Source: Eledone cirrhosa (lineage: Eukaryota). From it: a DNA stretch of 64,000 bases. Shown here one piece after another: positions 15,990-64,000 of this stretch. Below the pieces are notes generated by a model that saw nothing but the letters and a program-made list of their open reading frames with translations, did not search any database and had not been told where the DNA came from. How positions within the stretch are numbered: the stretch's first letter is position 1; every line of letters starts with the position of its first letter. Position numbers and translations under genes: made by a program. The stretch spans positions 20,708,001 to 20,772,000 of the forward strand of contig OZ024764.1 in NCBI GenBank assembly GCA_964016885.1, in the 5' to 3' direction.

Positions 15990-16010
15990 ATGTTCTTTTA
16001 TTATTTCAGA
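15990..16010 (+). promoter_or_regulatory. Putative 3' splice acceptor of the ZNF coding exon
   Basis: atgttcttttattatttcag|a, with AG at 16008-16009. Homologous acceptors precede the ZNF remnants at 2200 and 19587. Confidence 0.55.
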
Positions 16011-30716: not shown

Positions 30717-32299
30717 AGAGGTTTCCCAGTACCCCTCGTTGCTGTCTTTTGCTCTGGTGTTGGCTCCGTTGTCCACCCCTTCCTTTACATTTTCTTTAAT
30801 ATTGCAACATTGAAGGAATTTATCTTTCATTGTATCATCCTTTATAGTGTTACCGAGGCATTTGTAATGTTATTTATATATTTAAAACATATTTCTTATG
30901 TTATTCTACTGTAAATTTATTTATATGCTCTGTTTATATTTTCATTCTGAAGTAACTTATCCACTTGTGTTGATATAAGTGATTCTATGACTTTCCTCTA
31001 AGCATTGTGTCATTATATATGTTATTATAAACGTGAATAAATTGAATTTATAGTGTGATAATAACCCTAGGGGTTAACTACACACTTTGAGGCAAGCCAA
31101 CACACTGGCAGCATTACAACGGGTGATGGTGAGGCTAAGGTGCTTAAATAACCAGGTACCCTCACGGGTATCACCTGACGCCTCTATAAGGTGAGGCTAA
31201 GGTGCTGAGATAACCAGGTACTCTTACGGATATCACCTGACACCTCAGTAAGGTGAGGCTACGGTGCTGAAATAACCAGGTACCCTCACGGAAACGACTA
31301 GATTTGTAGAAAAAGTAGGGTGAAAGTATACAAAGAGATGTAGTTTCACAGATCTACTCACACCTCACGTTGGGTGAGAATAATTATTTTTCTTAGAATT
31401 CTTGCTATACCCCTTTTTCAGTATTTTTTCTCTGGACCCCTTAGATACTTGCGATAGACGTTTTATTTCCCAGTATTAGGATTAGGGTTTCCGTTTTCAG
31501 GAAGAAAAGTCGATTGCAAACATCTAAGAGTTCGAGCAATAAAATTAAGGAAAGATAATTATTTCCCAGCCAACTGGAGAAGTGTGTAGCTCTTCTAAAC
31601 TCCGATAATCCTGTCTCCCACTTCTTTATCTACAAATCTAGTTGTTTCCTGCTACTTTGTTCCCTGTGGTATGCCTTAGTATTTGACACTATCTGTCTCT
31701 CTTACTGCCTAACTAGCAAGAAGTAAATCTGTCTCATGTGTTCACCTGATTGGTAGGTTATTAGGTGGTTGGTAGGTTTCTTGAAGTGTTGCAAATGGTT
31801 AGTTCACTTGCATCACAAAATACAAGAAGCCTCACTCCTCCTTCATTTCTTGAGCCATAACCATGACCACCATGTACCCCAGTGTATCCATCCTGGAGCT
31901 GTCCAACATGACCATGGTAGTCCCCTGCTATTCTAACTAGGTCTCTGTCCTCTGACATTGAGGTTATCTCTACTTATTCCTTTTCTACATATGGAGCAGG
32001 GCCACTTTCCTGAATGGGTCAGGGTCTTCTCTCCTATCCATTACCACTTTAGTTTTGGCTAAGTATATTCTTAGAACTTACCATTTCAAATTCTATATCT
32101 ATAGCTGGTCATCTACATAGAGAAGTTTCCATAGACAGCCAGTCTTAAACCTCTCTGTTATGGCTTGGAGAACTATGATGAACAACAGTGGGCTAAGAAC
32201 TAAACCATGATGAACTCCTACCTGTACCTTCAATTCCTCACTAGACACACTTTACTGACAGCTTCTCACAAGGCATTCTTCTACACCTAATTTCCTTAA

Positions 32300-34425: not shown

Positions 34426-37400
34426 TTAATCTAATGTCACTAATAACTACTTTTATCAGTCTGTATAATCTAATGTCACTAATAACTACTTTTATCAGTC
34501 AGTATAATCTAATGTCACTAATAACTACTTTTATCAGTCAGTATAATCTAATGTCACTAATAACTACTTTTATCAGTCAGTTTAATCTAATGTCACTAAT
34601 AACTACTTTTATCAGTCAGTATAATCTAAAGTCACTAATAACTACTTTTATCAGTCAGTTTAATCTAATGTCACTAATAACTACTTTTATCAGTCAGTAT
34701 AATCCAATGCCACTAATTACTACTTTTATCAGTCAGTATAATCTAATGTCACTAATAACTACTTTTATCAGTCAGTTTAATCTAATCTCACTAATAACTA
34801 CTTTTATCAATCAGTATAATCTAATGTCACTAATAACTACTTTTATCAGTCAGTTCAATCTAATGTCACTAATAACTACTTTTATCAGTCAGTTTAATCT
34901 AATGTCACTAATAACTACTTTTATCAGTCAGTTTAATCTAATCTCACTAATAACTACTTTTATCAGTCAGTTCAATCTAATGTCACTAATAACTACTTTT
35001 ATCAGTCAGTTTAATCTACTGTCACTAATAACTACTTTTATCAGTCAGTATAATCTAATGTCACTAATAACTACTTTTATCAGTCAGTTCAATCTAATGT
35101 CACTAATAACTACTTTTATCAGTCAGTTTAATCCAATCTCACTAATAACTACTTTTATCAGTCAGTATAATCTAATCTCACTAATAAATACTTTTATCAG
35201 TCAGTTTAATCTAATGTCACTAATAACTACTTTTATCAGTCAGTTTAATCTACTGTCACTAATAACTACTTTTATCAGTCAGTATAATCTAATGTCACTA
35301 ATAACTACTTTTATCAGTCAGTTCAATCTAATCTCACTAATAACTACTTTTATCAGTCAGTTTAATCTAATCTCACTAATAACTACTTTTATCAGTCAGT
35401 ATAATCTAATCTCACTAATAAATACTTTTATCAGTTAGTTTAATCTAATCTCACTAATAACTACTTTTATCAGTCAGTATAATCTAATGTCACTAATAAC
35501 TACTTTTATCAGTCAGTATAATCTAATCTCACTAATAAATACTTTTATCAGTTAGTTTAATCTAATGTCACTAATAACTACTTTTATCAGTCAGTATAAT
35601 CTAATGTCACTAATAACTACTTTTATCAGTCAGTTTAATCTAATCTCACTAATAACTACTTTTATCAGTCAGTATAATCTAAATTCACTAATAACTACTT
35701 TTATCAGTCAGTTTAATCTAATCTCACTAATAACTACTTTTATCAGTCAGTTTAATCTAATCTCACTAATAACTACTTTTATCAGTCAGTTCAATCTAAT
35801 GTCACTAATAACTACTTTTATCAGTCAGTATAATCTAATTTCACTAATAACTACTTTTATCAGTCAGTATAATCTAATGTCACTAATAACTACTTTTATC
35901 AGTCAGTATAATCTAATGTCATTAATAACTACTTTTATCAGTCAGTATAATCTAATGTCACTAATAACTACTTTTATCAGTCAGTATAATCTAATGTCAC
36001 TAATAACTACTTTTATCAGTCAGTATAATCTAATGTCACTAATAACTACTTTTATCAGTCAGTATAATCTAATGTCACTAATAACTACTTTTATCAGTCA
36101 GTATAATCTAATGTCACTAATAACTACTTTTATCAGTCAGTATAATCTAATGTCACTAATAACTACTTTTATCAGTCAGTATAATCTAATGTCACTAATA
36201 ACTACTTTTATCAGTCAGTATAATCTAATCTCACTAATAACTACTTTTATCAGTCAGTATAATCTAATGTCACTAATAACTACTTTTATCAGTCAGTTTA
36301 ATCTAATCTCACTAATAACTACTTTTATCAGTCAGTTTAATCTAATGTAACTAATAACTACTTTTATCAGTCAGTATAATCTAATCTCACTAATAACTAC
36401 TTTTATCAGTCAGTTTAATCTAATCTCACTAATAACTACTTTTATCAGTCAGTTTAATCTAATCTCACTAATAACTACTTTTATCAGTCAGTATAATCTA
36501 ATCTCACTAATAACTACTTTTATCAGTCAGTATAATCTAATGTCACTAATAACTACTTTTATCAGTCAGTTTAATCTAATCTCACTAATAACTACTTTTA
36601 TCAGTCAGTTTAATCTAATCTCACTAATAACTACTTTTATCAGTCAGTTCAATCTAATGTCACTAATAACTACTTTTATCAGTTAGTATAATCTAATTTC
36701 ACTAATAACTACTTTTATCAGTCAGTATAATCTAATGTCACTAATAACTACTTTTATCAGTCAGTATAATCTAATGTCACTAATAACTACTTTTATCAGT
36801 CAGTATAATCTAATGTCACTAATAACTACTTTTATCAGTCAGTATAATCTAATGTCACTAATAACTACTTTTATCAGTCAGTATAATCTAATGTCACTAA
36901 TAACTACTTTTATCAGTCAGTATAATCTAATGTCACTAATAACTACTTTTATCAGTCAGTATAATCTAATGTCACTAATAACTACTTTTATCAGTCAGTA
37001 TAATCTAATGTCACTAATAACTACTTTTATCAGTAAGTATAATCTAATCTCACTAATAACTACTTTTATCAGTCAGTTCAATCTAATGTCACTAATAACT
37101 ACTTTTATCAGTCAGTATAATCTAATTTCACTAATAACTACTGTTATCAGTCAGTATAATCTAATGTCACTAATAACTACTTTTATCAGTCAGTATAATC
37201 TAATGTCACTAATAACTACTTTTATCAGTCAGTATAATCTAATGTCACTAATAACTACTTTTATCAGTCAGTTTAATCTAATCTCACTAATAACTACTTT
37301 TATCAGTCAGTATAATCTAATCTCACTAATAACTACTTTTATCAGTCAGTATAATCTAATGTCACTAATAACTACTTTTATCAGTCAGTATAATCTAATG

Positions 37401-40400
37401 TCACTAATAACTACTTTTATCAGTCAGTATAATCTAATGTCACTAATAACTACTTTTATCAGTCAGTATAATCTAATGTCACTAATAACTACTTTTATCA
37501 GTCAGTATAATCTAATGTCACTAATAACTACTTTTATCAGTCAGTATAATCTAATGTCACTAATAACTACTTTTATCAGTCAGTATAATCTAATGTCACT
37601 AATAACTACTTTTATCAGTCAGTATAATCTAATGTCACTAATAACTACTTTTATCAGTAAGTATAATCTAATCTCACTAATAACTACTTTTATCAGTCAG
37701 TTCAATCTAATGTCACTAATAACTACTTTTATCAGTCAGTATAATCTAATTTCACTAATAACTACTTTTATCAGTCAGTATAATCTAATGTCACTAATAA
37801 CTACTTTTATCAGTCAGTATAATCTAATGTCACTAATAACTACTTTTATCAGTCAGTATAATCTAATGTCACTAATAACTACTTTTATCAGTCAGTTTAA
37901 TCTAATCTCACTAATAACTACTTTTATCAGTCAGTATAATCTAATCTCACTAATAACTACTTTTATCAGTCAGTATAATCTAATGTCACTAATAACTACT
38001 TTTATCAGTCAGTTTAATCTAATCTCACTAATAACTACTTTTATCAGTCAGTTTAATCTAATGTAACTAATAACTACTTTTATCAGTCAGTATAATCTAA
38101 TCTCACTAATAACTACTTTTATCAGTCAGTTTAATCTAATCTCACTAATAACTACTTTTATCTGTCAGTTTAATCTAATATAACTAATAACTACTTTTAT
38201 CAGTCAGTTTAATCTAATCTCACTAATAACTACTTTTATCAGTCAGTTTAATCTAATCTCACTAATAACTACTTTTATCAGTCAGTTTAATCTAATGCCA
38301 CTAATAACTACTTTTATCAGTCAGTTTAATCTAATGCCACTAATAACTACTTTTATCAGTCAGTTTAATCTAATGTCACTAATAACTACTTTTATCAGTC
38401 AGTTTAATCTACTGTCACTAATAACTACTTTTATCAGTCAGTATAATCTAATGTCACTAATAACTACTTTTATCAGTCAGTTCAATCTAATCTCACTAAT
38501 AACTACTTTTATCAGTCAGTTTAATCTAATCTCACTAATAACTACTTTTATCAGTCAGTATAATCTAATCTCACTAATAAATACTTTTATCAGTTAGTTT
38601 AATCTAATCTCACTAATAACTACTTTTATCAGTCAGTATAATCTAATGTCACTAATAACTACTTTTATCAGTCAGTTTAATCTAATCTCACTAATAACTA
38701 CTTTTATCAGTCAGTATAATCTAAATTCACTAATAACTACTTTTATCAGTCAGTTTAATCTAATCTCACTAATAACTACTTTTATCAGTCAGTTTAATCT
38801 AATCTCACTAATAACTACTTTTATCAGTCAGTTCAATCTAATGTCACTAATAACTACTTTTATCAGTCAGTATAATCTAATTTCACTAATAACTACTTTT
38901 ATCAGTCAGTATAATCTAATGTCACTAATAACTACTTTTATCAGTCAGTATAATCTAATGTCATTAATAACTACTTTTATCAGTCAGTATAATCTAATGT
39001 CACTAATAACTACTTTTATCAGTCAGTATAATCTAATGTCACTAATAACTACTTTTATCAGTCAGTATAATCTAATGTCACTAATAACTACTTTTATCAG
39101 TCAGTATAATCTAATGTCACTAATAACTACTTTTATCAGTCAGTATAATCTAATGTCACTAATAACTACTTTTATCAGTCAGTATAATCTAATGTCACTA
39201 ATAACTACTTTTATCAGTCAGTATAATCTAATGTCACTAATAACTACTTTTATCAGTCAGTATAATCTAATCTCACTAATAACTACTTTTATCAGTCAGT
39301 ATAATCTAATGTCACTAATAACTACTTTTATCAGTCAGTTTAATCTAATCTCACTAATAACTACTTTTATCAGTCAGTTTAATCTAATGTAACTAATAAC
39401 TACTTTTATCAGTCAGTATAATCTAATCTCACTAATAACTACTTTTATCAGTCAGTTTAATCTAATCTCACTAATAACTACTTTTATCAGTCAGTTTAAT
39501 CTAATCTCACTAATAACTACTTTTATCAGTCAGTATAATCTAATCTCACTAATAACTACTTTTATCAGTCAGTATAATCTAATGTCACTAATAACTACTT
39601 TTATCAGTCAGTTTAATCTAATCTCACTAATAACTACTTTTATCAGTCAGTTTAATCTAATCTCACTAATAACTACTTTTATCAGTCAGTTCAATCTAAT
39701 GTCACTAATAACTACTTTTATCAGTCAGTATAATCTAATTTCACTAATAACTACTTTTATCAGTCAGTATAATCTAATGTCACTAATAACTACTTTTATC
39801 AGTCAGTATAATCTAATGTCACTAATAACTACTTTTATCAGTCAGTATAATCTAATGTCACTAATAACTACTTTTATCAGTCAGTATAATCTAATGTCAC
39901 TAATAACTACTTTTATCAGTCAGTATAATCTAATGTCACTAATAACTACTTTTATCAGTCAGTATAATCTAATGTCACTAATAACTACTTTTATCAGTCA
40001 GTATAATCTAATGTCACTAATAACTACTTTTATCAGTCAGTATAATCTAATGTCACTAATAACTACTTTTATCAGTCAGTATAATCTAATGTCACTAATA
40101 ACTACTTTTATCAGTCAGTATAATCTAATGTCACTAATAACTACTTTTATCAGTCAGTTTAATCTAATGTAACTAATAACTACTTTTATCAGTCAGTATA
40201 ATCTAATCTCACTAATAACTACTTTTATCAGTCAGTTTAATCTAATCTCACTAATAACTACTTTTATCTGTCAGTTTAATCTAATATAACTAATAACTAC
40301 TTTTATCAGTCAGTTTAATCTAATCTCACTAATAACTACTTTTATCAGTCAGTTTAATCTAATCTCACTAATAACTACTTTTATCAGTCAGTATAATCTA

Positions 40401-43400: not shown

Positions 43401-46400
43401 CTAATGTCACAAATAACTACTTTTATCAGTCAGTATAATCTAATGTCACTAATAACTACTTTTATCAGTCAGTATAATCTAATGTCACTAATAACTACTT
43501 TTATCAGTCAGTATAATCTAACGTCACTAATAACTACTTTTATCAGTCAGTATAATCTAATCTCACTAATAACTACTTTTATCAGTCAGTTCAATCTAAT
43601 GTCACTAATAACTACTTTTATCAGTCAGTATAATCTAATTTCACTAATAACTACTTTTATCAGTCAGTATAATCTAATGTCACTAATAACTACTTTTATC
43701 AGTCAGTATAATCTAATGTCACTAATAACTACTTTTATCAGTCAGTATAATCTAATGTCACTAATAACTACTTTTATCAGTCAGTTTAATCTAATCTCAC
43801 TAATAACTACTTTTATCAGTCAGTATAATCTAATCTCACTAATAACTACTTTTATCAGTCAGTATAATCTAATGTCACTAATAACTACTTTTATCAGTCA
43901 GTTTAATCTAATCTCACTAATAACTACTTTTATCAGTCAGTTTAATCTAATGTAACTAATAACTACTTTTATCAGTCAGTATAATCTAATCTCACTAATA
44001 ACTACTTTTATCAGTCAGTTTAATATAATGTCACTAATAACTACTTTTATCAGTCAGTTTAATCTAATCTCACTAATAACTACTTTTATCAGTCAGTTTA
44101 ATCTAATCTCACTAATAACTACTTTTATCAGTCAGTATAATCTAATCTCACTAATAACTACTTTTATCAGTCAGTATAATCTAATGTCACTAATAACTAC
44201 TTTTATCAGTCAGTTTAATCTAATCTCACTAATAACTACTTTTATCAGTCAGTTTAATCTAATCTCACTAATAACTACTTTTATCAGTCAGTTCAATCTA
44301 ATGTCACTAATAACTACTTTTATCAGTCAGTATAATCTAATTTCACTAATAACTACTTTTATCAGTCAGTATAATCTAATGTCACTAATAACTACTTTTA
44401 TCAGTCAGTATAATCTAATGTCACTAATAACTACTTTTATCAGTAAGTATAATCTAATCTCACTAATAACTACTTTTATCAGTCAGTTCAATCTAATGTC
44501 ACTAATAACTACTTTTATCAGTCAGTATAATCTAATTTCACTAATAACTACTTTTATCAGTCAGTATAATCTAATGTCACTAATAACTACTTTTATCAGT
44601 CAGTATAATCTAATGTCACTAATAACTACTTTTATCAGTCAGTATAATCTAATGTCACTAATAACTACTTTTATCAGTCAGTTTAATCTAATCTCACTAA
44701 TAACTACTTTTATCAGTCAGTATAATCTAATCTCACTAATAACTACTTTTATCAGTCAGTATAATCTAATGTCACTAATAACTACTTTTATCAGTCAGTT
44801 TAATCTAATCTCACTAATAACTTCTTTTATCAGTCAGTTTAATCTAATGTAACTAATAACTACTTTTATCAGTCAGTATAATCTAATCTCACTAATAACT
44901 ACTTTTATCAGTCAGTTTAATCTAATCTCACTAATAACTACTTTTATCTGTCAGTTTAATCTAATATAACTAATAACTACTTTTATCAGTCAGTTTAATC
45001 TAATCTCACTAATTACTTTTATCAGTCAGTTTAATCTAATCTCACTAATAACTACTTTTATCAGTCAGTATAATCTAATGTCACTAATAACTACTTTTAT
45101 CAGTCAGTATAATCTAATCTCACTAATAACTACTTTTATCAGTCAGTATAATCTAAAGTCACTAATAACTACTTTTATCAGTCAGTATAATCTAATGTCA
45201 CTAATAACTACTTTTATCAGTCAGTTTAATCTAAAGTCACTAATAACTACTTTTATCAGTCAATATAATCTAATGTCACTAATAACTACTTTTATCAGTC
45301 AGTATAATCTAATGTCACTAATAACTACTTTTATCAGTCAGTATAATCTAAAGTCACTAATAACTACTTTTATCAGTCAGTATAATCTAATGTCACTAAT
45401 AACTACTTTTATCAGTCAATATAATCTAATGTCACTAATAACTACTTTTATCAGTCAGTATAATCTAATGTCACTAATAACTACTTTTATCAGTCAATAT
45501 AATCTAATGTCACTAATAACTACTTTTATCAGTCAGTATAATCTAATGTCACTAATAACTACTTTTATCAGTCAGTATAATCTAATGTCACTAATAACTA
45601 CTTTTATCTGTCAGTATAATCTAAAGTCACTAATAACTACTTTTATCAGTCAATATAATCTAATGTCACTAATAACTACTTTTATCAGTCAGTTTAATCT
45701 AAAGTCACTAATAACTACTTTTATCAGTCAGTATAATCTAATGTCACTAATAACTACTTTTATCAGTCAATATAATCTAATGTCACTAATAACTACTTTT
45801 ATCAGTCAGTTTAATCTACTGCCACTAATAACTACTTTTATCAGTCAGTATAATCTAATGTCACTAATAACTACTTTTATCTGTCAGTATAATTTAAAGT
45901 CACTAATAACTACTTTTATCAGTCAATATAATCTAATGTCACTAATAACTACTTTTATCAGTCAGTATAATCTACTGTCACTAATAACTACTTTTATCAG
46001 TCAGTTTAATCTACTGCCACTAATAACTACTTTTATCAGTCAGTATAATCTAATGTCACTAATAACTACTTTTATCTGTCAGTATAATTTAAAGTCACTA
46101 ATAACTACTTTTATCAGTCAATATAATCTAATGTCACTAATAACTACTTTTATCAGTCAGTATAATCTAATGTCACTAATAACTACTTTTATCAGTCAAT
46201 ATAATCTAATGTCACTAATAACTACTTTTATCAGTCAGTTTAATCTACTGCCACTAATAACTACTTTTATCAGTCAGTATAATCTAATGTCACTAATAAC
46301 TACTTTTATCTGTCAGTATAATCTAAAGTCACTAATAACTACTTTTATCAGTCAATATAATCTAATGTCACTAATAACTACTTTTATCAGTCAGTTTAAT

Positions 46401-49400
46401 CTAATGTAATAACTACTTTTATCAGTCAGTATAATCTAATGTCACTAATAACTACTTTTATCAGTCAGTTTAATCTAATGCCACTAATAACTACTTTTAT
46501 CAGTCAGTATAATCTAATGTCACTAATAACTACTTTTATCTGTCAGTATAATCTAAAGTCACTAATAACTACTTTTATCAGTCAGTATAATTTAATGTCA
46601 CTACTAACTACTTTTATCAGTCAGTATAATCTAATGTCACTAATAACTACTTTTATCAGTCAGTTTAATCTAATGCCACTAATAACTACTTTTATCAGTC
46701 AGTATAATCTAATGTCACTAATAACTACTTTTATCTGTCAGTATAATCTAAAGTCACTAATAACTACTTTTATCAGTCAGTATAATCTAATGTCACTAAT
46801 AACTACTTTTATCAGTCAGTTTAATCTAATGCCACTAATAACTACTTTTATCAGTCAGTTTAATCTAATGTCACTAATAACTACTTTTATCAGTCAGTTT
46901 AATCTAATCTCACTAATAACTACTTTTATCAGTCAGTTTAATCTAATGTCACTAATAACTACTTTTATCAGTCAGTTTAATCTAATGTCACTAATAACTA
47001 CTTTTATCAGTCAGTTTAATCTAATCTCACTAATAACTACTTTTATCAGTCAGTTTAATCTAATGTCACTAATAACTACTTTTATCAGTCAGTTTAATCT
47101 AATGTCACTAATAACTACTTTTATCAGTCAGTTTAATCTAATCTCACTAATAACTACTTTTATCAGTCAGTTTAATCTAATGTCACTAATAACTACTTTT
47201 ATCAGTCAGTTTAATCTAATGTCACTAATAACTACTTTTATCAGTCAGTTTAATCTAATCTCACTAATAACTACTTTTATCAGTCAGTTTAATCTAATGT
47301 CACTAATAACTACTTTTATCAGTCAGTTTAATCTAATGTCACTAATAACTACTTTTATCAGTCAGTTTAATCTAATCTCACTAATAACTACTTTTATCAG
47401 TCAGTTTAATCTAATGTCACTAATAACTACTTTTATCAGTCAGTTTAATCTAATCTCACTAATAACTACTTTTATCAGTCAGTTTAATCTAATGTCACTA
47501 ATAACTACTTTTATCAGTCAGTTTAATCTAATCTCACTAATAACTACTTTTATCAGTCAGTTTAATCTAATGTCACTAATAACTACTTTTATCAGTCAGT
47601 TTAATCTAATCTCACTAATAACTACTTTTATTAGTCAGTTTAATATAATGTCACTAATAACTACTTTTATCAGTCAGTTTAATCTAATCTCACTAATAAC
47701 TACTTTTATTAGTCAGTTTAATATAATGTCACTAATAACTACTTTTATCAGTCAGTATAATCTAATCTCACTAATAACTACTTTTATCAGTGAGTATAAT
47801 CTAATGTCACTAATAACTACTTTTATCAGTCAGTTTAATCTAATCTCACTAATAACTACTTTTATTAGTCAGTTTAATATAATGTCACTAATAACTACTT
47901 TTATCAGTCAGTATAATCTAATCTCACTAATAACTACTTTTATCAGTCAGTATAATCTAATGTCACTAATAACTACTTTTATCAGTCAGTTTAATCTAAT
48001 GTCACTAATAACTACTTTTATTAGTCAGTTTAATATAATGTCACTAATAACTACTTTTATCAGTCAGTTTAATCTAATCTCACTAATAACTACTTTTATT
48101 AGTCAGTTTAATATAATGTCACTAATAACTACTTTTATCAGTCAGTTTAATCTAATCTCACTAATAACTACTTTTATTAGTCAGTTTAATATAATGTCAC
48201 TAATAACTACTTTTATCAGTCAGTATAATCTAATGTCACTAATAACTACTTTTATCAGTCAGTATAATCTAATGTCACTAATAACTACTTTTATCAGTCA
48301 GTATAATCTAATGTCACTAATAACTACTTTTATCAGTCAGTATAATCTAATGTCACTAATAACTACTTTTATCAGTCAGTATAATCTAATGTCACTAATA
48401 ACTACTTTTATCAGTCAGTATAATCTAATGTCACTAATAACTACTTTTATCAGTCAGTATAATCTAACGTCACTAATAACTACTTTTATCAGTCAGTATA
48501 ATCTAATCTCACTAATAACTACTTTTATCAGTCAGTTCAATCTAATGTCACTAATAACTACTTTTATCAGTCAGTATAATCTAATTTCACTAATAACTAC
48601 TTTTATCAGTCAGTATAATCTAATGTCACTAATAACTACTTTTATCAGTCAGTATAATCTAATGTCACTAATAACTACTTTTATCAGTCAGTATAATCTA
48701 ATGTCACTAATAACTACTTTTATCAGTCAGTATAATCTAATGTCACTAATAACTACTTTTATCAGTCAGTATAATCTAATGTCACTAATAACTACTTTTA
48801 TCAGTCAGTATAATCTAATGTCACTAATAACTACTTTTATCAGTCAGTTTAATCTAATGTCACTAATAACTACTTTTATCAGTCAGTATAATCTAATGTC
48901 ACTAATAACTACTTTTATCAGTCAGTATAATCTAATGTCACTAATAACTACTTTTATCAGTCAGTATAATCTAATGTCACTAATAACTACTTTTATCAGT
49001 CAGTATAATCTAATGTCACTAATAACTACTTTTATCAGTCAGTATAATCTAACGTCACTAATAACTACTTTTATCAGTCAGTATAATCTAATCTCACTAA
49101 TAACTACTTTTATCAGTCAGTTCAATCTAATGTCACTAATAACTACTTTTATCAGTCAGTATAATCTAATTTCACTAATAACTACTTTTATCAGTCAGTA
49201 TAATCTAATGTCACTAATAACTACTTTTATCAGTCAGTATAATCTAATGTCACTAATAACTACTTTTATCAGTCAGTATAATCTAATGTCACTAATAACT
49301 ACTTTTATCAGTCAGTATAATCTAATGTCACTAATAACTACTTTTATCAGTCAGTTTAATCTACTGCCACTAATAACTACTTTTATCAGTCAGTATAATC

Positions 49401-52400
49401 TAATGTCACTAATAACTACTTTTATCTGTCAGTATAATTTAAAGTCACTAATAACTACTTTTATCAGTCAATATAATCTAATGTCACTAATAACTACTTT
49501 TATCAGTCAGTATAATCTAATGTCACTAATAACTACTTTTATCAGTCAATATAATCTAATGTCACTAATAACTACTTTTATCTGTCAGTATAATCTAATG
49601 TCACTAATAACTACTTTTATCAGTCAGTTTAATCTACTGCCACTAATAACTACTTTTATCAGTCAGTATAATCTAATGTCACTAATAACTACTTTTATCT
49701 GTCAGTATAATTTAAAGTCACTAATAACTACTTTTATCAGTCAATATAATCTAATGTCACTAATAACTACTTTTATCAGTCAGTATAATCTAATGTCACT
49801 AATAACTACTTTTATCAGTCAATATAATCTAACGTCACTAATAACTACTTTTATCAGTCAGTTTAATCTACTGCCACTAATAACTACTTTTATCAGTCAG
49901 TATAATCTAATGTCACTAATAACTACTTTTATCTGTCAGTATAATCTAAAGTCACTAATAACTACTTTTATCAGTCAATATAATCTAATGTCACTAATAA
50001 CTACTTTTATCAGTCAGTTTAATCTAATGTCACTAATAACTACTTTTATCAGTCAGTATAATCTAATGTCACTAATAACTACTTTTATCAGTCAGTTTAA
50101 TCTAATGCCACTAATAACTACTTTTATCAGTCAGTATAATCTAATGTCACTAATAACTACTTTTATCTGTCAGTATAATCTAAAGTCACTAATAACTACT
50201 TTTATCAGTCAGTATAATTTAATGTCACTACTAACTACTTTTATCAGTCAGTATAATCTAATGTCACTAATAACTACTTTTATCAGTCAGTTTAATCTAA
50301 TGCCACTAATAACTACTTTTATCAGTCAGTATAATCTAATGTCACTAATAACTACTTTTATCTGTCAGTATAATCTAAAGTCACTAATAACTACTTTTAT
50401 CAGTCAGTATAATCTAATGTCACTAATAACTACTTTTATCAGTCAGTTTAATCTAATGCCACTAATAACTACTTTTATCAGTCAGTTTAATCTAATGTCA
50501 CTAATAACTACTTTTATCAGTCAGTTTAATCTAATCTCACTAATAACTACTTTTATCAGTCAGTTTAATCTAATGTCACTAATAACTACTTTTATCAGTC
50601 AGTTTAATCTAATGTCACTAATAACTACTTTTATCAGTCAGTTTAATCTAATCTCACTAATAACTACTTTTATCAGTCAGTTTAATCTAATGTCACTAAT
50701 AACTACTTTTATCAGTCAGTTTAATCTAATGTCACTAATAACTACTTTTATCAGTCAGTTTAATCTAATCTCACTAATAACTACTTTTATCAGTCAGTTT
50801 AATCTAATGTCACTAATAACTACTTTTATCAGTCAGTTTAATCTAATGTCACTAATAACTACTTTTATCAGTCAGTTTAATCTAATCTCACTAATAACTA
50901 CTTTTATCAGTCAGTTTAATCTAATGTCACTAATAACTACTTTTATCAGTCAGTTTAATCTAATGTCACTAATAACTACTTTTATCAGTCAGTTTAATCT
51001 AATCTCACTAATAACTACTTTTATCAGTCAGTTTAATCTAATGTCACTAATAACTACTTTTATCAGTCAGTTTAATCTAATCTCACTAATAACTACTTTT
51101 ATCAGTCAGTTTAATCTAATGTCACTAATAAGTACTTTTATCAGTCAGTTTAATCTAATCTCACTAATAACTACTTTTATCAGTCAGTTTAATCTAATGT
51201 CACTAATAACTACTTTTATCAGTCAGTTTAATCTAATCTCACTAATAACTACTTTTATTAGTCAGTTTAATATAATGTCACTAATAACTACTTTTATCAG
51301 TCAGTTTAATCTAATCTCACTAATAACTACTTTTATTAGTCAGTTTAATATAATGTCACTAATAACTACTTTTATCAGTCAGTATAATCTAATCTCACTA
51401 ATAACTACTTTTATCAGTGAGTATAATCTAATGTCACTAATAACTACTTTTATCAGTCAGTTTAATCTAATCTCACTAATAACTACTTTTATTAGTCAGT
51501 TTAATATAATGTCACTAATAACTACTTTTATCAGTCAGTATAATCTAATCTCACTAATAACTACTTTTATCAGTCAGTATAATCTAATGTCACTAATAAC
51601 TACTTTTATCAGTCAGTTTAATCTAATGTCACTAATAACTACTTTTATTAGTCAGTTTAATATAATGTCACTAATAACTACTTTTATCAGTCAGTTTAAT
51701 CTAATCTCACTAATAACTACTTTTATTAGTCAGTTTAATATAATGTCACTAATAACTACTTTTATCAGTCAGTTTAATCTAATCTCACTAATAACTACTT
51801 TTATTAGTCAGTTTAATATAGTGTCACTAATAACTACTTTTATCAGTCAGTATAATCTAATGTCACTAATAACTACTTTTATCAGTCAGTATAATCTAAT
51901 GTCACTAATAACTACTTTTATCAGTCAGTATAATCTAATGTCACTAATAACTACTTTTATCAGTCAGTATAATCTAATGTCACTAATAACTACTTTTATC
52001 AGTCAGTATAATCTAATGTCACTAATAACTACTTTTATCAGTCAGTATAATCTAATGTCACTAATAACTACTTTTATCAGTCAGTATAATCTAACGTCAC
52101 TAATAACTACTTTTATCAGTCAGTATAATCTAATCTCACTAATAACTACTTTTATCAGTCAGTTCAATCTAATGTCACTAATAACTACTTTTATCAGTCA
52201 GTATAATCTAATTTCACTAATAACTACTTTTATCAGTCAGTATAATCTAATGTCACTAATAACTACTTTTATCAGTCAGTATAATCTAATGTCACTAATA
52301 ACTACTTTTATCAGTCAGTATAATCTAATGTCACTAATAACTACTTTTATCAGTCAGTATAATCTAATGTCACTAATAACTACTTTTATCAGTCAGTATA

Positions 52401-55400
52401 ATCTAATGTCACTAATAACTACTTTTATCAGTCAGTATAATCTAATGTCACTAATAACTACTTTTATCAGTCAGTATAATCTAAAGTCACTAATAACTAC
52501 TTTTATCAGTCAGTATAATCTAATGTCACTACTAACTACTTTTATCAGTCAGTATAATCTAATGTCACTAATAACTACTTTTATCAGTCAGTTTAATCTA
52601 ATGTCACTAATAACTACTTTTATCAGTCAGTATAATCTAATGTCACTAATAACTACTTTTATCAGTCAGTATAATCTAATGTCACTAATAACTACTTTTA
52701 TCAGTCAGTATAATCTAATGTCACTAATAACTACTTTTATCAGTCAGTATAATCTAATGTCACTAATAACTACTTTTATCAGTCAGTATAATCTAACGTC
52801 ACTAATAACTACTTTTATCAGTCAGTATAATCTAATCTCACTAATAACTACTTTTATCAGTCAGTTCAATCTAATGTCACTAATAACTACTTTTATCAGT
52901 CAGTATAATCTAATTTCACTAATAACTACTTTTATCAGTCAGTATAATCTAATGTCACTAATAACTACTTTTATCAGTCAGTATAATCTAATGTCACTAA
53001 TAACTACTTTTATCAGTCAGTATAATCTAATGTCACTAATAACTACTTTTATCAGTCAGTATAATCTAATGTCACTAATAACTACTTTTATCAGTCAGTA
53101 TAATCTAATGTCACTAATAACTACTTTTATCAGTCAGTATAATCTAATGTCACTAATAACTACTTTTATCAGTCAGTATAATCTAAAGTCACTAATAACT
53201 ACTTTTATCAGTCAGTATAATCTAATGTCACTACAACTACTTTTATCAGTCAGTATAATCTAATGTCACTAATAACTACTTTTATCAGTCAGTTTAATCT
53301 AATGCCACTAATAACTACTTTTATCAGTCAGTATAATCTAATGTCACTAATAACTACTTTTATCTGTCAGTATAATCTAAAGTCACTAATAACTACTTTT
53401 ATCAGTCAGTATAATCTAATGTCACTAATAACTACTTTTATCAGTCAGTTTAATCTAATCTCACTAATAACTACTTTTATCAGTCAGTTTAATCTAATGT
53501 CACTAATAACTACTTTTATCAGTCAGTTTAATCTAATGTCACTAATAACTACTTTTATCAGTCAGTTTAATCTAATGTCACTAATAACTACTTTTATCAG
53601 TCAGTTTAATCTAATCTCACTAATAACTACTTTTATCAGTCAGTTTAATCTAATGTCACTAATAACTACTTTTATCAGTCAGTTTAATCTAATCTCACTA
53701 ATAACTACTTTTATCAGTCAGTTTAATCTAATGTCACTAATAACTACTTTTATCAGTCAGTTTAATCTAATCTCACTAATAACTACTTTTATCAGTCAGT
53801 TTAATCTAATGTCACTAATAACTACTTTTATCAGTCAGTTTAATCTAATCTCACTAATAACTACTTTTATCAGTGAGTATAATCTAATGTCACTAATAAC
53901 TACTTTTATCAGTCAGTTTAATCTAATCTCACTAATAACTACTTTTATTAGTCAGTTTAATATAATGTCACTAATAACTACTTTTATCAGTCAGTATAAT
54001 CTAATCTCACTAATAACTACTTTTATCAGTCAGTATAATCTAATGTCACTAATAACTACTTTTATCAGTCAGTTTAATCTAATGTCACTAATAACTACTT
54101 TTATTAGTCAGTTTAATATAATGTCACTAATAACTACTTTTATCAGTCAGTTTAATCTAATCTCACTAATAACTACTTTTATTAGTCAGTTTAATATAAT
54201 GTCACTAATAACTACTTTTATCAGTCAGTTTAATCTAATCTCACTAATAACTACTTTTATTAGTCAGTTTAATATAATCTCACTAATAACTACTTTTATC
54301 AGTCAGTATAATCTAATGTCACTAATAACTACTTTTATCAGTCAGTATAATCTAATGTCACTAATAACTACTTTTATCAGTCAGTATAATCTAATGTCAC
54401 TAATAACTACTTTTATCAGTCAGTATAATCTAATGTCACTAATAACTACTTTTATCAGTCAGTATAATCTAATGTCACTAATAACTACTTTTATCAGTCA
54501 GTATAATCTAATGTCACTAATAACTACTTTTATCAGTCAGTATAATCTAATGTCACTAATAACTACTTTTATCAGTCAGTATAATCTAATGTCACTAATA
54601 ACTACTTTTATCAGTCAGTATAATCTAATGTCACTAATAACTACTTTTATCAGTCAGTATAATCTAATGTCACTAATAACTACTTTTATCAGTCAGTATA
54701 ATCTAATGTCACTAATAACTACTTTTATCAGTCAGTATAATCTAATGTCACTAATAACTACTTTTATCAGTCAGTATAATCTAATGTCACTAATAACTAC
54801 TTTTATCAGTCAGTATAATCTAATGTCACTAATAACTACTTTTATCAGTCAGTATAATCTAATGTCACTAATAACTACTTTTATCAGTCAGTATAATCTA
54901 ACGTCACTAATAACTACTTTTATCAGTCAGTATAATCTAATCTCACTAATAACTACTTTTATCAGTCAGTTCAATCTAATGTCACTAATAACTACTTTTA
55001 TCAGTCAGTATAATCTAATTTCACTAATAACTACTTTTATCAGTCAGTATAATCTAATGTCACTAATAACTACTTTTATCAGTCAGTATAATCTAATGTC
55101 ACTAATAACTACTTTTATCAGTCAGTATAATCTAATGTCACTAATAACTACTTTTATCAGTCAGTTTAATCTAATCTCACTAATAACTACTTTTATCAGT
55201 CAGTATAATCTAATCTCACTAATAACTACTTTTATCAGTCAGTATAATCTAATGTCACTAATAACTACTTTTATCAGTCAGTTTAATCTAATCTCACTAA
55301 TAACTACTTTTATCAGTCAGTTTAATCTAATGTAACTAATAACTACTTTTATCAGTCAGTATAATCTAATCTCACTAATAACTACTTTTATCAGTCAGTT

Positions 55401-58400
55401 TAATCTAATCTCACTAATAACTACTTTTATCAGTCAGTTTAATCTAATCTCACTAATAACTACTTTTATCAGTCAGTATAATCTAATCTCACTAATAACT
55501 ACTTTTATCAGTCAGTATAATCTAATGTCACTAATAACTACTTTTATCAGTCAGTTTAATCTAATCTCACTAATAACTACTTTTATCAGTCAGTTTAATC
55601 TAATCTCACTAATAACTACTTTTATCAGTCAGTTCAATCTAATGTCACTAATAACTACTTTTATCAGTCAGTTTAATCTAATGTCACTAATAACTACTTT
55701 TATCAGTCAGTTTAATCTAATGTCACTAATAACTACTTTTATCAGTCAGTTTAATCTAATCTCACTAATAACTACTTTTATCAGTCAGTTTAATCTAATG
55801 TCACTAATAACTACTTTTATCAGTCAGTTTAATCTAATCTCACTAATAACTACTTTTATCAGTCAGTTTAATCTAATGTCACTAATAACTACTTTTATCA
55901 GTCAGTTTAATCTAATCTCACTAATAACTACTTTTATCAGTCAGTTTAATCTAATGTCACTAATAACTACTTTTATCAGTCAGTTTAATCTAATCTCACT
56001 AATAACTACTTTTATTAGTCAGTTTAATATAATGTCACTAATAACTACTTTTATCAGTCAGTTTAATCTAATCTCACTAATAACTACTTTTATTAGTCAG
56101 TTTAATATAATGTCACTAATAACTACATTTATCAGTCAGTATAATCTAATCTCACTAATAACTACTTTTATCAGTGAGTATAATCTAATGTCACTAATAA
56201 CTACTTTTATCAGTCAGTTTAATCTAATCTCACTAATAACTACTTTTATTAGTCAGTTTAATATAATGTCACTAATAACTACTTTTATCAGTCAGTATAA
56301 TCTAATCTCACTAATAACTACTTTTATCAGTCAGTATAATCTAATGTCACTAATAACTACTTTTATCAGTCAGTTTAATCTAATGTCACTAATAACTACT
56401 TTTATTAGTCAGTTTAATATAATGTCACTAATAACTACTTTTATCAGTCAGTTTAATCTAATCTCACTAATAACTACTTTTATTAGTCAGTTTAATATAA
56501 TGTCACTAATAACTACTTTTATCAGTCAGTTTAATCTAATCTCACTAATAACTACTTTTATTAGTCAGTTTAATATAATGTCACTAATAACTACTTTTAT
56601 CAGTCAGTATAATCTAATGTCACTAATAACTACTTTTATCAGTCAGTATAATCTAATGTCACTAATAACTACTTTTATCAGTCAGTATAATCTAATGTCA
56701 CTAATAACTACTTTTATCAGTCAGTATAATCTAATGTCACTAATAACTACTTTTATCAGTCAGTATAATCTAATGTCACTAATAACTACTTTTATCAGTC
56801 AGTATAATCTAATGTCACTAATAACTACTTTTATCAGTCAGTATAATCTAACGTCACTAATAACTACTTTTATCAGTCAGTATAATCTAATCTCACTAAT
56901 AACTACTTTTATCAGTCAGTTCAATCTAATTTCACTAATAACTACTTTTATCAGTCAGTATAATCTAATGTCACTAATAACTACTTTTATCAGTCAGTAT
57001 AATCTAATGTCACTAATAACTACTTTTATCAGTCAGTATAATCTAATGTCACTAATAACTACTTTTATCAGTCAGTATAATCTAATGTCACTAATAACTA
57101 CTTTTATCAGTCAGTATAATCTAATGTCACTAATAACTACTTTTATCAGTCAGTATAATCTAATGTCACTAATAACTACTTTTATCAGTCAGTATAATCT
57201 AAAGTCACTAATAACTACTTTTATCAGTCAGTATAATCTAATGTCACTACTAACTACTTTTATCAGTCAGTATAATCTAATGTCACTAATAACTACTTTT
57301 ATCAGTCAGTTTAATCTAATGCCACTAATAACTACTTTTATCAGTCAGTATAATCTAATGTCACTAATAACTACTTTTATCTGTCAGTATAATCTAAAGT
57401 CACTAATAACTACTTTTATCAGTCAGTATAATCTAACGTCACTAATAACTACTTTTATCAGTCAGTATAATCTAATCTCACTAATAACTACTTTTATCAG
57501 TCAGTTCAATCTAATGTCACTAATAACTACTTTTATCAGTCAGTATAATCTAATTTCACTAATAACTACTTTTATCAGTCAGTATAATCTAATGTCACTA
57601 ATAACTACTTTTATCAGTCAGTATAATCTAATGTCACTAATAACTACTTTTATCAGTCAGTATAATCTAATGTCACTAATAACTACTTTTATCAGTCAGT
57701 ATAATCTAATGTCACTAATAACTACTTTTATCAGTCAGTATAATCTAATGTCACTAATAACTACTTTTATCAGTCAGTATAATCTAATGTCACTAATAAC
57801 TACTTTTATCAGTCAGTATAATCTAAAGTCACTAATAACTACTTTTATCAGTCAGTATAATCTAATGTCACTACTAACTACTTTTATCAGTCAGTATAAT
57901 CTAATGTCACTAATAACTACTTTTATCAGTCAGTTTAATCTAATGTCACTAATAACTACTTTTATCAGTCAGTATAATCTAATGTCACTAATAACTACTT
58001 TTATCAGTCAGTATAATCTAATGTCACTAATAACTACTTTTATCAGTCAGTATAATCTAATGTCACTAATAACTACTTTTATCAGTCAGTATAATCTAAT
58101 GTCACTAATAACTACTTTTATCAGTCAGTATAATCTAACGTCACTAATAACTACTTTTATCAGTCAGTATAATCTAATCTCACTAATAACTACTTTTATC
58201 AGTCAGTTCAATCTAATGTCACTAATAACTACTTTTATCAGTCAGTATAATCTAATTTCACTAATAACTACTTTTATCAGTCAGTATAATCTAATGTCAC
58301 TAATAACTACTTTTATCAGTCAGTATAATCTAATGTCACTAATAACTACTTTTATCAGTCAGTATAATCTAATGTCACTAATAACTACTTTTATCAGTCA

Positions 58401-61400
58401 GTATAATCTAATGTCACTAATAACTACTTTTATCAGTCAGTATAATCTAATGTCACTAATAACTACTTTTATCAGTCAGTATAATCTAATGTCACTAATA
58501 ACTACTTTTATCAGTCAGTATAATCTAAAGTCACTAATAACTACTTTTATCAGTCAGTATAATCTAATGTCACTACTAACTACTTTTATCAGTCAGTATA
58601 ATCTAATGTCACTAATAACTACTTTTATCAGTCAGTTTAATCTAATGCCACTAATAACTACTTTTATCAGTCAGTATAATCTAATGTCACTAATAACTAC
58701 TTTTATCTGTCAGTATAATCTAAAGTCACTAATAACTACTTTTATCAGTCAGTATAATCTAATGTCACTAATAACTACTTTTATCAGTCAGTTTAATCTA
58801 ATCTCACTAATAACTACTTTTATCAGTCAGTTTAATCTAATCTCACTAATAACTACTTTTATTAGTCAGTTTAATATAATGTCACTAATAACTACTTTTA
58901 TCAGTCAGTTTAATCTAATCTCACTAATAACTACTTTTATTAGTCAGTTTAATATAATCTCACTAATAACTACTTTTATCAGTCAGTATAATCTAATGTC
59001 ACTAATAACTACTTTTATCAGTCAGTATAATCTAATGTCACTAATAACTACTTTTATCAGTCAGTATAATCTAATGTCACTAATAACTACTTTTATCAGT
59101 CAGTATAATCTAATGTCACTAATAACTACTTTTATCAGTCAGTATAATCTAATGTCACTAATAACTACTTTTATCAGTCAGTATAATCTAATGTCACTAA
59201 TAACTACTTTTATCAGTCAGTATAATCTAATGTCACTAATAACTACTTTTATCAGTCAGTATAATCTAATGTCACTAATAACTACTTTTATCAGTCAGTA
59301 TAATCTAATGTCACTAATAACTACTTTTATCAGTCAGTATAATCTAATGTCACTAATAACTACTTTTATCAGTCAGTATAATCTAATGTCACTAATAACT
59401 ACTTTTATCAGTCAGTATAATCTAATGTCACTAATAACTACTTTTATCAGTCAGTATAATCTAATGTCACTAATAACTACTTTTATCAGTCAGTATAATC
59501 TAATGTCACTAATAACTACTTTTATCAGTCAGTATAATCTAATGTCACTAATAACTACTTTTATCAGTCAGTATAATCTAACGTCACTAATAACTACTTT
59601 TATCAGTCAGTATAATCTAATCTCACTAATAACTACTTTTATCAGTCAGTTCAATCTAATGTCACTAATAACTACTTTTATCAGTCAGTATAATCTAATT
59701 TCACTAATAACTACTTTTATCAGTCAGTATAATCTAATGTCACTAATAACTACTTTTATCAGTCAGTATAATCTAATGTCACTAATAACTACTTTTATCA
59801 GTCAGTATAATCTAATGTCACTAATAACTACTTTTATCAGTCAGTTTAATCTAATCTCACTAATAACTACTTTTATCAGTCAGTATAATCTAATCTCACT
59901 AATAACTACTTTTATCAGTCAGTATAATCTAATGTCACTAATAACTACTTTTATCAGTCAGTTTAATCTAATCTCACTAATAACTACTTTTATCAGTCAG
60001 TTTAATCTAATGTAACTAATAACTACTTTTATCAGTCAGTATAATCTAATCTCACTAATAACTACTTTTATCAGTCAGTTTAATCTAATCTCACTAATAA
60101 CTACTTTTATCAGTCAGTTTAATCTAATCTCACTAATAACTACTTTTATCAGTCAGTATAATCTAATCTCACTAATAACTACTTTTATCAGTCAGTATAA
60201 TCTAATGTCACTAATAACTACTTTTATCAGTCAGTTTAATCTAATCTCACTAATAACTACTTTTATCAGTCAGTTTAATCTAATCTCACTAATAACTACT
60301 TTTATCAGTCAGTTCAATCTAATGTCACTAATAACTACTTTTATCAGTCAGTTTAATCTAATGTCACTAATAACTACTTTTATCAGTCAGTTTAATCTAA
60401 TCTCACTAATAACTACTTTTATCAGTCAGTTTAATCTAATCTCACTAATAACTACTTTTATCAGTCAGTTTAATCTAATGTCACTAATAACTACTTTTAT
60501 CAGTCAGTTTAATCTAATCTCACTAATAACTACTTTTATCAGTCAGTTTAATCTAATGTCACTAATAACTACTTTTATCAGTCAGTTTAATCTAATCTCA
60601 CTAATAACTACTTTTATCAGTCAGTTTAATCTAATGTCACTAATAACTACTTTTATCAGTCAGTTTAATCTAATCTCACTAATAACTACTTTTATTAGTC
60701 AGTTTAATATAATGTCACTAATAACTACTTTTATCAGTCAGTTTAATCTAATCTCACTAATAACTACTTTTATTAGTCAGTTTAATATAATGTCACTAAT
60801 AACTACATTTATCAGTCAGTATAATCTAATCTCACTAATAACTACTTTTATCAGTGAGTATAATCTAATGTCACTAATAACTACTTTTATCAGTCAGTTT
60901 AATCTAATCTCACTAATAACTACTTTTATTAGTCAGTTTAATATAATGTCACTAATAACTACTTTTATCAGTCAGTATAATCTAATCTCACTAATAACTA
61001 CTTTTATCAGTCAGTATAATCTAATGTCACTAATAACTACTTTTATCAGTCAGTTTAATCTAATGTCACTAATAACTACTTTTATTAGTCAGTTTAATAT
61101 AATGTCACTAATAACTACTTTTATCAGTCAGTTTAATCTAATCTCACTAATAACTACTTTTATTAGTCAGTTTAATATAATGTCACTAATAACTACTTTT
61201 ATCAGTCAGTTTAATCTAATCTCACTAATAACTACTTTTATTAGTCAGTTTAATATAATGTCACTAATAACTACTTTTATCAGTCAGTATAATCTAATGT
61301 CACTAATAACTACTTTTATCAGTCAGTATAATCTAATGTCACTAATAACTACTTTTATCAGTCAGTATAATCTAATGTCACTAATAACTACTTTTATCAG

Positions 61401-64000
61401 TCAGTATAATCTAATGTCACTAATAACTACTTTTATCAGTCAGTATAATCTAATGTCACTAATAACTACTTTTATCAGTCAGTATAATCTAATGTCACTA
61501 ATAACTACTTTTATCAGTCAGTATAATCTAACGTCACTAATAACTACTTTTATCAGTCAGTATAATCTAATCTCACTAATAACTACTTTTATCAGTCAGT
61601 TCAATCTAATTTCACTAATAACTACTTTTATCAGTCAGTATAATCTAATGTCACTAATAACTACTTTTATCAGTCAGTATAATCTAATGTCACTAATAAC
61701 TACTTTTATCAGTCAGTATAATCTAATGTCACTAATAACTACTTTTATCAGTCAGTATAATCTAATGTCACTAATAACTACTTTTATCAGTCAGTATAAT
61801 CTAATGTCACTAATAACTACTTTTATCAGTCAGTATAATCTAATGTCACTAATAACTACTTTTATCAGTCAGTATAATCTAAAGTCACTAATAACTACTT
61901 TTATCAGTCAGTATAATCTAATGTCACTACTAACTACTTTTATCAGTCAGTATAATCTAATGTCACTAATAACTACTTTTATCAGTCAGTTTAATCTAAT
62001 GCCACTAATAACTACTTTTATCAGTCAGTATAATCTAATGTCACTAATAACTACTTTTATCTGTCAGTATAATCTAAAGTCACTAATAACTACTTTTATC
62101 AGTCAGTATAATCTAACGTCACTAATAACTACTTTTATCAGTCAGTATAATCTAATCTCACTAATAACTACTTTTATCAGTCAGTTCAATCTAATGTCAC
62201 TAATAACTACTTTTATCAGTCAGTATAATCTAATTTCACTAATAACTACTTTTATCAGTCAGTATAATCTAATGTCACTAATAACTACTTTTATCAGTCA
62301 GTATAATCTAATGTCACTAATAACTACTTTTATCAGTCAGTATAATCTAATGTCACTAATAACTACTTTTATCAGTCAGTATAATCTAATGTCACTAATA
62401 ACTACTTTTATCAGTCAGTATAATCTAATGTCACTAATAACTACTTTTATCAGTCAGTATAATCTAATGTCACTAATAACTACTTTTATCAGTCAGTATA
62501 ATCTAAAGTCACTAATAACTACTTTTATCAGTCAGTATAATCTAATGTCACTACTAACTACTTTTATCAGTCAGTATAATCTAATGTCACTAATAACTAC
62601 TTTTATCAGTCAGTTTAATCTAATGTCACTAATAACTACTTTTATCAGTCAGTATAATCTAATGTCACTAATAACTACTTTTATCAGTCAGTATAATCTA
62701 ATGTCACTAATAACTACTTTTATCAGTCAGTATAATCTAATGTCACTAATAACTACTTTTATCAGTCAGTATAATCTAATGTCACTAATAACTACTTTTA
62801 TCAGTCAGTATAATCTAACGTCACTAATAACTACTTTTATCAGTCAGTATAATCTAATCTCACTAATAACTACTTTTATCAGTCAGTTCAATCTAATGTC
62901 ACTAATAACTACTTTTATCAGTCAGTATAATCTAATTTCACTAATAACTACTTTTATCAGTCAGTATAATCTAATGTCACTAATAACTACTTTTATCAGT
63001 CAGTATAATCTAATGTCACTAATAACTACTTTTATCAGTCAGTATAATCTAATGTCACTAATAACTACTTTTATCAGTCAGTATAATCTAATGTCACTAA
63101 TAACTACTTTTATCAGTCAGTATAATCTAATGTCACTAATAACTACTTTTATCAGTCAGTATAATCTAATGTCACTAATAACTACTTTTATCAGTCAGTA
63201 TAATCTAAAGTCACTAATAACTACTTTTATCAGTCAGTATAATCTAATGTCACTACTAACTACTTTTATCAGTCAGTATAATCTAATGTCACTAATAACT
63301 ACTTTTATCAGTCAGTTTAATCTAATGCCACTAATAACTACTTTTATCAGTCAGTATAATCTAATGTCACTAATAACTACTTTTATCTGTCAGTATAATC
63401 TAAAGTCACTAATAACTACTTTTATCAGTCAGTATAATCTAATGTCACTAATAACTACTTTTATCAGTCAGTTTAATCTAATCTCACTAATAACTACTTT
63501 TATCAGTCAGTTTAATCTAATGTCACTAATAACTACTTTTACCAGTCAGTTTAATCTAATGTCACTAATAACTACTTTTATCAGTCAGTTTAATCTAATG
63601 TCACTAATAACTACTTTTATCAGTCAGTTTAATCTAATCTCACTAATAACTACTTTTATCAGTCAGTATAATCTAATGTCACTAATAACTACTTTTATCA
63701 GTCAGTATAATCTAATGTCACTAATAACTACTTTTATCAGTCAGTTTAATCTAATGTCACTAATAACTACTTTTATCAGTCAGTTTAATCTAATGTCACT
63801 AATAACTACTTTTACCAGTCAGTTTAATCTAATGTCACTAATAACTACTTTTATCAGTCAGTATAATCTAATGTCACTAATAACTACTTTTATCAGTCAG
63901 TTTAATCTAATGTCACTAATAACTACTTTTATCAGTCAGTTTAATCTAATCTCACTAATAACTACTTTTATCAGTCAGTTTAATCTAATGTCACTAATAA
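34426..64000. repeat. Giant 39-bp satellite array (>=29.5 kb, ~758 monomers, continues past the window edge)
   Basis: Uninterrupted head-to-tail ctaatgtcactaataactacttttatcagtcagt(a/t)taat with single-base variants and rare indels (~45014, ~46408, ~53233). Confidence 0.99.

Follow-up and report, generated by a model that had tools for sequence, protein, structure and literature searches.

A window of 64,000 nucleotides from Eledone cirrhosa (NCBI GenBank assembly GCA_964016885.1, contig OZ024764.1, positions 20,708,001 to 20,772,000 of the forward strand; positions below count from its first letter) carries one and the same 39-bp tandem repeat at paralogous positions in two neighboring copies, A and B, of a C2H2 zinc-finger (ZNF) gene, yet at very different lengths. 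Tandem Repeats Finder (TRF) gives 16.8 copies at 15226-15880 in A and 758.5 copies with 96% matches in B, where the array starts at 34427 and reaches the window end at 64000. An earlier, sequence-only reading of this DNA had reported the shared unit and a size gap of at least 45-fold, both of which are borne out, and had taken A and B as the “before” and “after” states of satellite birth. We instead favor, with moderate confidence, a hypermutable intronic variable-number tandem repeat (VNTR) in a recently amplified C2H2 ZNF family, with array lengths that drift neutrally and without a selected function.

Cut into units, array B yields 758, of which 755 are exactly 39 bp long. They fall into 54 types, with 349 of the 758 belonging to just the two commonest, and differ pairwise by 4.2% on average. 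Exact duplicate blocks of at least 10 units and at least three types hold 539 of the 758 units, compared with 0 in 50 shuffles, and 425 units sit in duplicates of at least 20 units. The longest exact repeat covers 79 units (3.1 kb) and lies inside a pair of adjacent 4,680-bp (120-unit) blocks that are a single base apart; the former figure comes from a unit-level comparison and the block pair was compared directly, since a nucleotide-level scan skips phase-shifted lags and under-reports such repeats. Perfect tracts of at least five units number 26, and every one of them consists of the consensus unit, with 180 units in total and a longest tract of 15. We find no regular higher-order repeat in B, where the best lag (120 units) matches at 29% versus 14% expected, and the unit string shows irregular blocks copied at many scales. 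The head-to-tail 39-bp unit falls within the class range of a minisatellite (~7-100 bp), and 17 versus at least 758 units at paralogous positions make the repeat a VNTR. As a homogeneous array of at least 29.5 kb with nested block duplications, B also qualifies as a satellite at the small end of that class. Within the array, neither GATC nor GANTC sites occur. Across 1-34426, 16-mers of the unit (at most two mismatches) are confined to array A, and an exact search of metagenome contigs with a 30-base part of the unit returned 0 matches. A coding role for the repeat was rejected, as the frame that is open through A closes after 338 amino acids in B.

It is very improbable that B is an assembly over-expansion of a far shorter array. 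The main suspect would be the tandem 4,680-bp block pair with its single-base difference, one block of which makes up 16% of the array, but ~24.9 kb of diverged nested structure remains after the suspect block is removed. In addition, the number of unit types in diverged nested blocks, the 79-unit ceiling on exact repeats, the freedom from indels of all but three units and the very high depth of the 39-bp repeat in contigs of a public sequencing run (X1, described below) speak against it. An assembler is unlikely to invent such a nested and diverged structure, and we conclude that the long array is real and built from nested block duplications.

Array A, in turn, is derived and not a pristine “before” state. 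It lacks 77 bp that are present in B, comprising the right terminal repeat of a TTAA-flanked element that precedes both arrays and the start of unit 1. The deletion junction at 15225/15226 shows a 2-bp microhomology, and its right breakpoint lies inside the array. Because the both-ended element is ancestral, A is the derived copy, and since the breakpoint falls within the array, few units or very many may have been lost with the deletion. The claim that both arrays hold the same position behind a CR1-like fragment and a transposable element is thus correct for the fragment and element, which precede both, but not for the left edge of A. The five variant alleles of A all occur in B as well, so the arrays share a common origin. 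B has 27 private alleles, with eight singletons among 755 units. Allele 10C, the second commonest in B, is found in 178 of 755 B units versus 0 of the 15 complete internal A units, and only 2 of the 741 15-unit windows of B are free of private alleles. No 15-unit window in the visible part of B comes close to A (the best has 14 mismatches), and we therefore rejected A as an excision from it. The two arrays look like two draws from a many-copy family, not parent and child. Separately, we observe that 7 of the 10 B units with 8C, an allele shared with A, cluster mid-array at 45812-49864, often beside 11C, 32T, and 37A.

To describe the age of the long array, we used simulations with infinite sites, block duplications, and a clock of 0.0045 per site per lineage, set by intron divergence. 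A static 758-unit array accumulates 110 to 144 new alleles (5-95%, 60 runs), nearly all singletons, whereas 27 and 8 are observed. With far fewer alleles than the static model gives, the array is either young or subject to fast turnover, and the earlier proposal of a recent size change is upheld. Starting from 4-16 units, simulated growth over the time span set by intron divergence yields the observed numbers of alleles and singletons. Under these models a static long array is rejected, while growth and fast turnover cannot be separated.

Two simpler histories of the pair have to be weighed. In the one that the sequence-only reading proposed, A represents the ancestral 17-unit state and B grew from its copy after one duplication. 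The allele and singleton counts do match exponential growth at 0.9% intron divergence, every A allele is present in B, and few repeat units are seen in a relative (run X5), yet we consider this history unlikely: the derived deletion in A ends inside the array, 10C is frequent in B and absent from A, B windows without private alleles are rare, and the private load exceeds that of growth simulations (P at most 0.03). In addition, the flanks are mosaic and many further paralogs are likely, and a seed identical to present A is disfavored. Contraction is the reverse possibility, with a long array in the common ancestor of the two introns, most of which A lost through its left-edge deletion while keeping the 3′ end. 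A breakpoint within the array would allow for this, and all four B statistics fit a large array with fast turnover. The history is nevertheless doubtful, given that A is unlike every 15-unit window of visible B, which leaves the unseen end as the only possible source, and that the repeat and flank depths in X1 suggest that most copies are likely short.

Self-comparison of 1-34500 reveals a tandem duplication of ~19 kb in which roughly 1-15370 matches 17573-34500. Each duplicated unit carries a C2H2 coding exon, tandem repeats of 82 and 48 bp, fragments of transposons, and an intron with the array at its end, preceded by a putative promoter and a short exon 1, and the window shows three consecutive ZNF gene copies. 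The open reading frame (ORF) of gene A (16824-18191) encodes 455 amino acids with 15 C2H2 fingers (zf-H2C2_2, E 7e-129) arranged in tandem with TGEKP linkers, identifying it as a C2H2 ZNF gene. As previously claimed, array A lies between a putative first-exon donor (GT at 9134-9135) and a predicted acceptor (AG at 16008-16009); the putative donor of B is found at 28065-28066. With its paralogous promoter, exon 1, and donor intact, B is likely a further ZNF gene, in agreement with the earlier assignment.

The flanks of the two copies have different histories. Promoter and exon 1 differ between A and B at 46 of 1,137 positions (4.05%) versus 54 of 6,055 positions (0.9%) in the intron flanks (Fisher P 8e-13). 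The switch from 4% to less than 1% divergence falls between 9125 and 9356, just past the donor (matching the stretch just after 28056 in B), and is likely a conversion or crossover breakpoint. At 9125, nine bases ahead of the donor, gene A has G and B has A. The mosaic arrangement suggests that paralogs have exchanged sequence by gene conversion or unequal crossing-over. The reverse-transcriptase (RT) frames beside the two arrays had been described as near-identical, with five differences in 481 amino acids; we count the same five over 497 amino acids compared. Given exchange among paralogs, this near-identity dates the last exchange and not the duplication.

The family beyond the window was approached through public sequencing runs. 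When 15885-16845 was used as a query, 10 runs were listed: four belong to one organism and contain 60-70% of the query words, and three belong to others and contain 9-14%. None of the 10 is recorded as RNA, which says nothing about expression. Contigs of four listed runs (X3, X1, X5, and X6) were aligned to 15800-16850, and the figures given here hold among the contigs listed; X7 (word share, 0.09), X2, X4, and the restriction-site-associated DNA sequencing runs X8 to X10 were outside the alignment. Contigs of X6 were set aside, as several are exactly 151 nucleotides (nt) long and two of six listed loose ends terminate in GATC, a pattern suggestive of ligation chimeras. Run X3 (88 Mb) behaves like RNA, though its library type is unrecorded. 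One of its contigs, 194 nt long, begins to align exactly at 16010, with 30 unaligned letters upstream, and X3 depth is 0.57 at 15944-15979 and ~170 beyond, at a place where X1 is unbroken. Contig start, depth step, and X1 continuity together support use of the acceptor within the family and suggest that some family member uses the predicted site.

Depth in X1 also bears on family size. A contig over 15901-16116 has a depth of 1,822 (others listed: 1,500, 835, 691, 561, 503, 352, and 133), and dispersed 85-95%-like contigs, relatives of a repeat in the 5′ untranslated region (UTR), have a median depth of 9.2 (21 listed values; range, 4 to 22). From this ratio, ~80-200 near-identical gene copies are likely in the window's species, and if the depth of 133 were single-copy it would still suggest at least 14. 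Alleles of window copy A give way in X1 to majority alleles at 16041, 16444, 16458, 16632, and 16815. Run X5 stems from a different organism that has variants of its own. Its gene contigs have depths of 4.4-4.9, a single-copy level close to the 3.9-4.5 of four of the five dispersed contigs listed (the other stands at 29), and the 39-bp repeat reaches ~27 times the gene-contig depth. This suggests that gene amplification and most of the repeat growth are specific to the lineage of the window, not that of X5. The summed repeat depth relative to flank depth corresponds to roughly 35-76 units per gene copy in X1, a rough figure since overlapping contigs inflate sums and an array without GATC or GANTC would be poorly represented in a library made with restriction enzymes. 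On this figure the average family copy would carry tens of units, which leaves A short of the mean and puts B far out in the long tail. In a comparison of the two runs the repeat-to-flank ratio is 7-14 in X3 and 35-67 in X1. The lower X3 value was rejected as evidence of silencing, since expression is poorly gauged by contig depth and the two runs come from different samples. In addition, an X1 variant at depth 172 (15884-15920) steps back by 36 bases across 29 intervening letters of different sequence, part of a unit among them: the array of some paralogs ends differently and incorporates flank sequence.

Our preferred reading, neutral length drift in an amplified family, can be laid out as follows. 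The starting point would be a short 39-bp minisatellite near the 3′ end of a ZNF intron, with a short array as the ancestral state at the level of the family. Judging from depth, the gene was presumably amplified in tandem about a hundredfold in this species, which would have placed the repeat just upstream of the acceptor in every family member. Length would then change through unequal exchange between sister chromatids, homologs, or paralogs, together with expansion of perfect tracts, as the nested blocks and mosaic flanks suggest. B would be part of the long tail of this drift, and A would have contracted at least once. Quite probably, the array of B ends in the standard flank followed by a ZNF exon.

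Several points weigh against this reading. The window ends within array B, and any exon 2 of B lies beyond 64000. Private alleles amount to 0.555 per unit in B, a load that no more than 3% of the growth runs attain (300 for each setting); a load of 0.31, approximately that without 10C, is attained by 5-14% of them, while a large fast-turnover array over an approximately threefold longer span fits all four B statistics. The RNA nature of X3 is unrecorded, and its contig ties the acceptor to neither a donor nor a particular paralog. Contig depth does not equal copy number, the library type of X1 is unrecorded, and the copy figure is an estimate. Finally, 15872-15979 is uncovered in X5, whose contig leaves the window upstream of 15997, so that the repeat may lie elsewhere in that genome.

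A functional role is conceivable as well: long arrays might act as a rheostat that lowers or mis-splices their own gene copy, thereby buffering the dosage of an amplified transcription factor. Scored against the splice consensus, the sense-strand unit contains a branch-point-like CTAAT, a short pyrimidine run, and a CAG, which makes for hundreds of candidate decoy acceptors in B. Pyrimidines fill 10 of the 16 positions before the unit AG versus 12 of 16 at the predicted acceptor, and four units near the start of B form AATAAA. There is also a parallel in TRACT, a human intronic VNTR, where long alleles are associated with lower expression in some tissues (PMC13131567) and the units contain splice consensus sites (10.1101/311795). 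However, none of the X3 loose ends and joints listed uses a unit AG, the 17 units of A sit ~130 bp from an acceptor apparently in use, and an effect on expression alone would not demonstrate selection. Moreover, a 30-kb intron is unexceptional in animals, and we regard such a rheostat as improbable. The wider picture, in which about a hundred near-identical loci were seeded with the 39-bp repeat, now range from ~17 to more than 750 units, and switch down the gene copies with the longest arrays via decoy acceptors, is unlikely.

Table 1. Features of the 64,000-nt window
Feature	Coordinates	Strand	Basis
Short 39-bp array, copy A, ~17 units; left edge is a deletion junction	15226..15880	+	TRF, A/B comparison
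B segment missing in A: right end of element and start of unit 1	34357..34433	+	A/B comparison
Copy B array of 39-bp units, 758 or more, running past the window end	34427..64000	+	TRF, unit cutting, block comparison
Youngest large duplication in B: two 4,680-bp blocks, real or assembly-made	54153..63512	+	Block comparison
Gene B: putative promoter and short exon 1 with donor GT (28065-28066); differs from A by 4.05%	26920..28066	+	Predicted role
Gene A: putative promoter and short exon 1 with donor GT (9134-9135)	7950..9135	+	Predicted role
Gene A: end of the intron past the array, with acceptor AG; common at high depth to many X1 paralogs	15881..16009	+	
Gene A: exon 2, with a long 5′ UTR ahead of C2H2 ORF 16824-18191 (455 amino acids, 15 full-pattern fingers)	16010..18191	+	
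3′ end of upstream C2H2 ZNF paralog	1..681	+	
Complete piggyBac-like non-autonomous element in B (presumed label), interrupted by RT fragment; TTAA and 11-bp inverted repeats	32296..34429	.	Sequence ends
Counterpart element in A, left end only	13289..15225	.	Sequence ends
RT open frame (Pfam RVT_1, E 4e-37); A counterpart at 13529-15022	32660..34291	-	

Both arrays follow an RT fragment, which we take by resemblance to be CR1-like, inside the TTAA-flanked element. We assume the latter to be piggyBac-like. The left end, consisting of TTAA and an 11-bp terminal repeat, is located at 13289 in A and 32296 in B. The right end with its TTAA is present only in B, at 34415-34429, where it overlaps the first array unit; B thus shows TTAA and inverted repeats at both ends (32296-32310 and 34415-34429) and A at the left end only. 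The flanks of the element (12300-13292 and 34426-34429) consist of an RT fragment cut mid-frame at the left and the array at the right, and so do not derive from one empty site. The left boundary of the array may have arisen through a deletion mediated by the element or through recombination between two copies.

Other parts of the duplicated unit vary as well. The 48-bp tandem repeat (3633-5594 and 21385-24151) ranges from ~6 to 17 copies across paralogs, and its host block is re-duplicated within the second unit. The 82-bp tandem repeat is found ~700 bp past each ZNF stop codon (1365-1911 and 18892-19297); the 2015 octopus genome paper is said to link C2H2 clusters to a tandem repeat of 70-90 bp. 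In the exon-2 5′ UTR, the part at 16071-16240 resembles a dispersed repeat with very many relatives in X1, X3, and X5, and loose ends there have a terminus of TTAA plus CCC, similar to the one seen in the intronic element. Finally, a subtype of the gene lacks 606 bp of this UTR (16170-16777) and is seen at a depth of 691 in X1, 72 in X3, and 4.9 in X5. As the ends of the gap are not GT-AG, it is a genomic deletion, which likely predates the split from the X5 relative.

The escape of minisatellites to satellite size is hard to study because there is usually one case per locus. If the depth estimate is true, a single assembly would hold near-identical gene copies in the tens to hundreds that share a seed repeat but differ greatly in its length. 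Perfect-tract length, unit alleles, and cluster position would then become testable predictors of run-away growth, and the relation of intron repeat length to splicing and expression could be tested while promoter and exons are almost constant. Such a family would amount to a replicated natural experiment in intronic satellite birth. We found no account of the 39-bp repeat or of an equivalent paralog pair in the literature, in a search that covered few subscription papers and excluded supplements.

The gene family itself fits what is described for coleoid C2H2 expansions, which form tandem multi-finger clusters with lineage-specific growth of 100-500 genes (PMC9068888, PMC12513265, PMC6279123); for octopods, a passage of one of these papers gives expansions of 104-495 genes (PMC12513265). 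No intronic satellite is mentioned there, unlike the situation here. Protein searches that scored 8,000 candidates each gave only distant hits, mostly vertebrate or unnamed. The sequence-only reading had drawn an analogy to the Drosophila Y-loop genes for a possible delay or silencing of transcription, and in kl-3 and kl-5 repeats indeed fill most of the intron, as they would in B. The analogy is weak, however, since those introns are megabase-long, consist of simple satellites that constitute more than 99% of the locus, and need dedicated RNA-binding proteins (PMC6508621), compared with at least 29.5 kb of a 39-bp unit in B.

Human repeats provide closer parallels. A survey of internal tandem repeats in human paralogs describes minisatellites of ~30 bp that vary between recent paralogs, mostly in large groups (PMC2812944); these average ~4 units (160 bp) and were picked for touching exons, whereas the arrays here are likely intronic and reach at least 29.5 kb. 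Human-specific VNTR expansions likewise show structured motif order with frequent internal duplication and deletion (PMC8327921), but these affect repeats at single loci, outside the setting of a gene family with many members. Most similar is TRACT, a 30-bp VNTR in intron 3 of CACNA1C, and with such a human precedent a 30-kb intronic VNTR is by itself unsurprising. TRACT is a single 30-mer in chimpanzee and spans 3 to 30+ kb in human introns (10.1101/311795), and its perfect tracts are proposed as the substrate of expansion (PMC13131567). The tracts of B, all of the consensus unit, would by analogy be in line with this model. TRACT and B share an intronic location, which is likely for B, a similar unit size and array length, structured 1-bp variants, perfect tracts, splice-like unit motifs, and recent lineage-specific growth from a tiny state, a likeness that implies no shared sequence. 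They differ in that TRACT is one locus compared across orthologs and alleles, whereas the arrays described here lie in adjacent, 99%-identical paralogs of what is likely a many-copy family.

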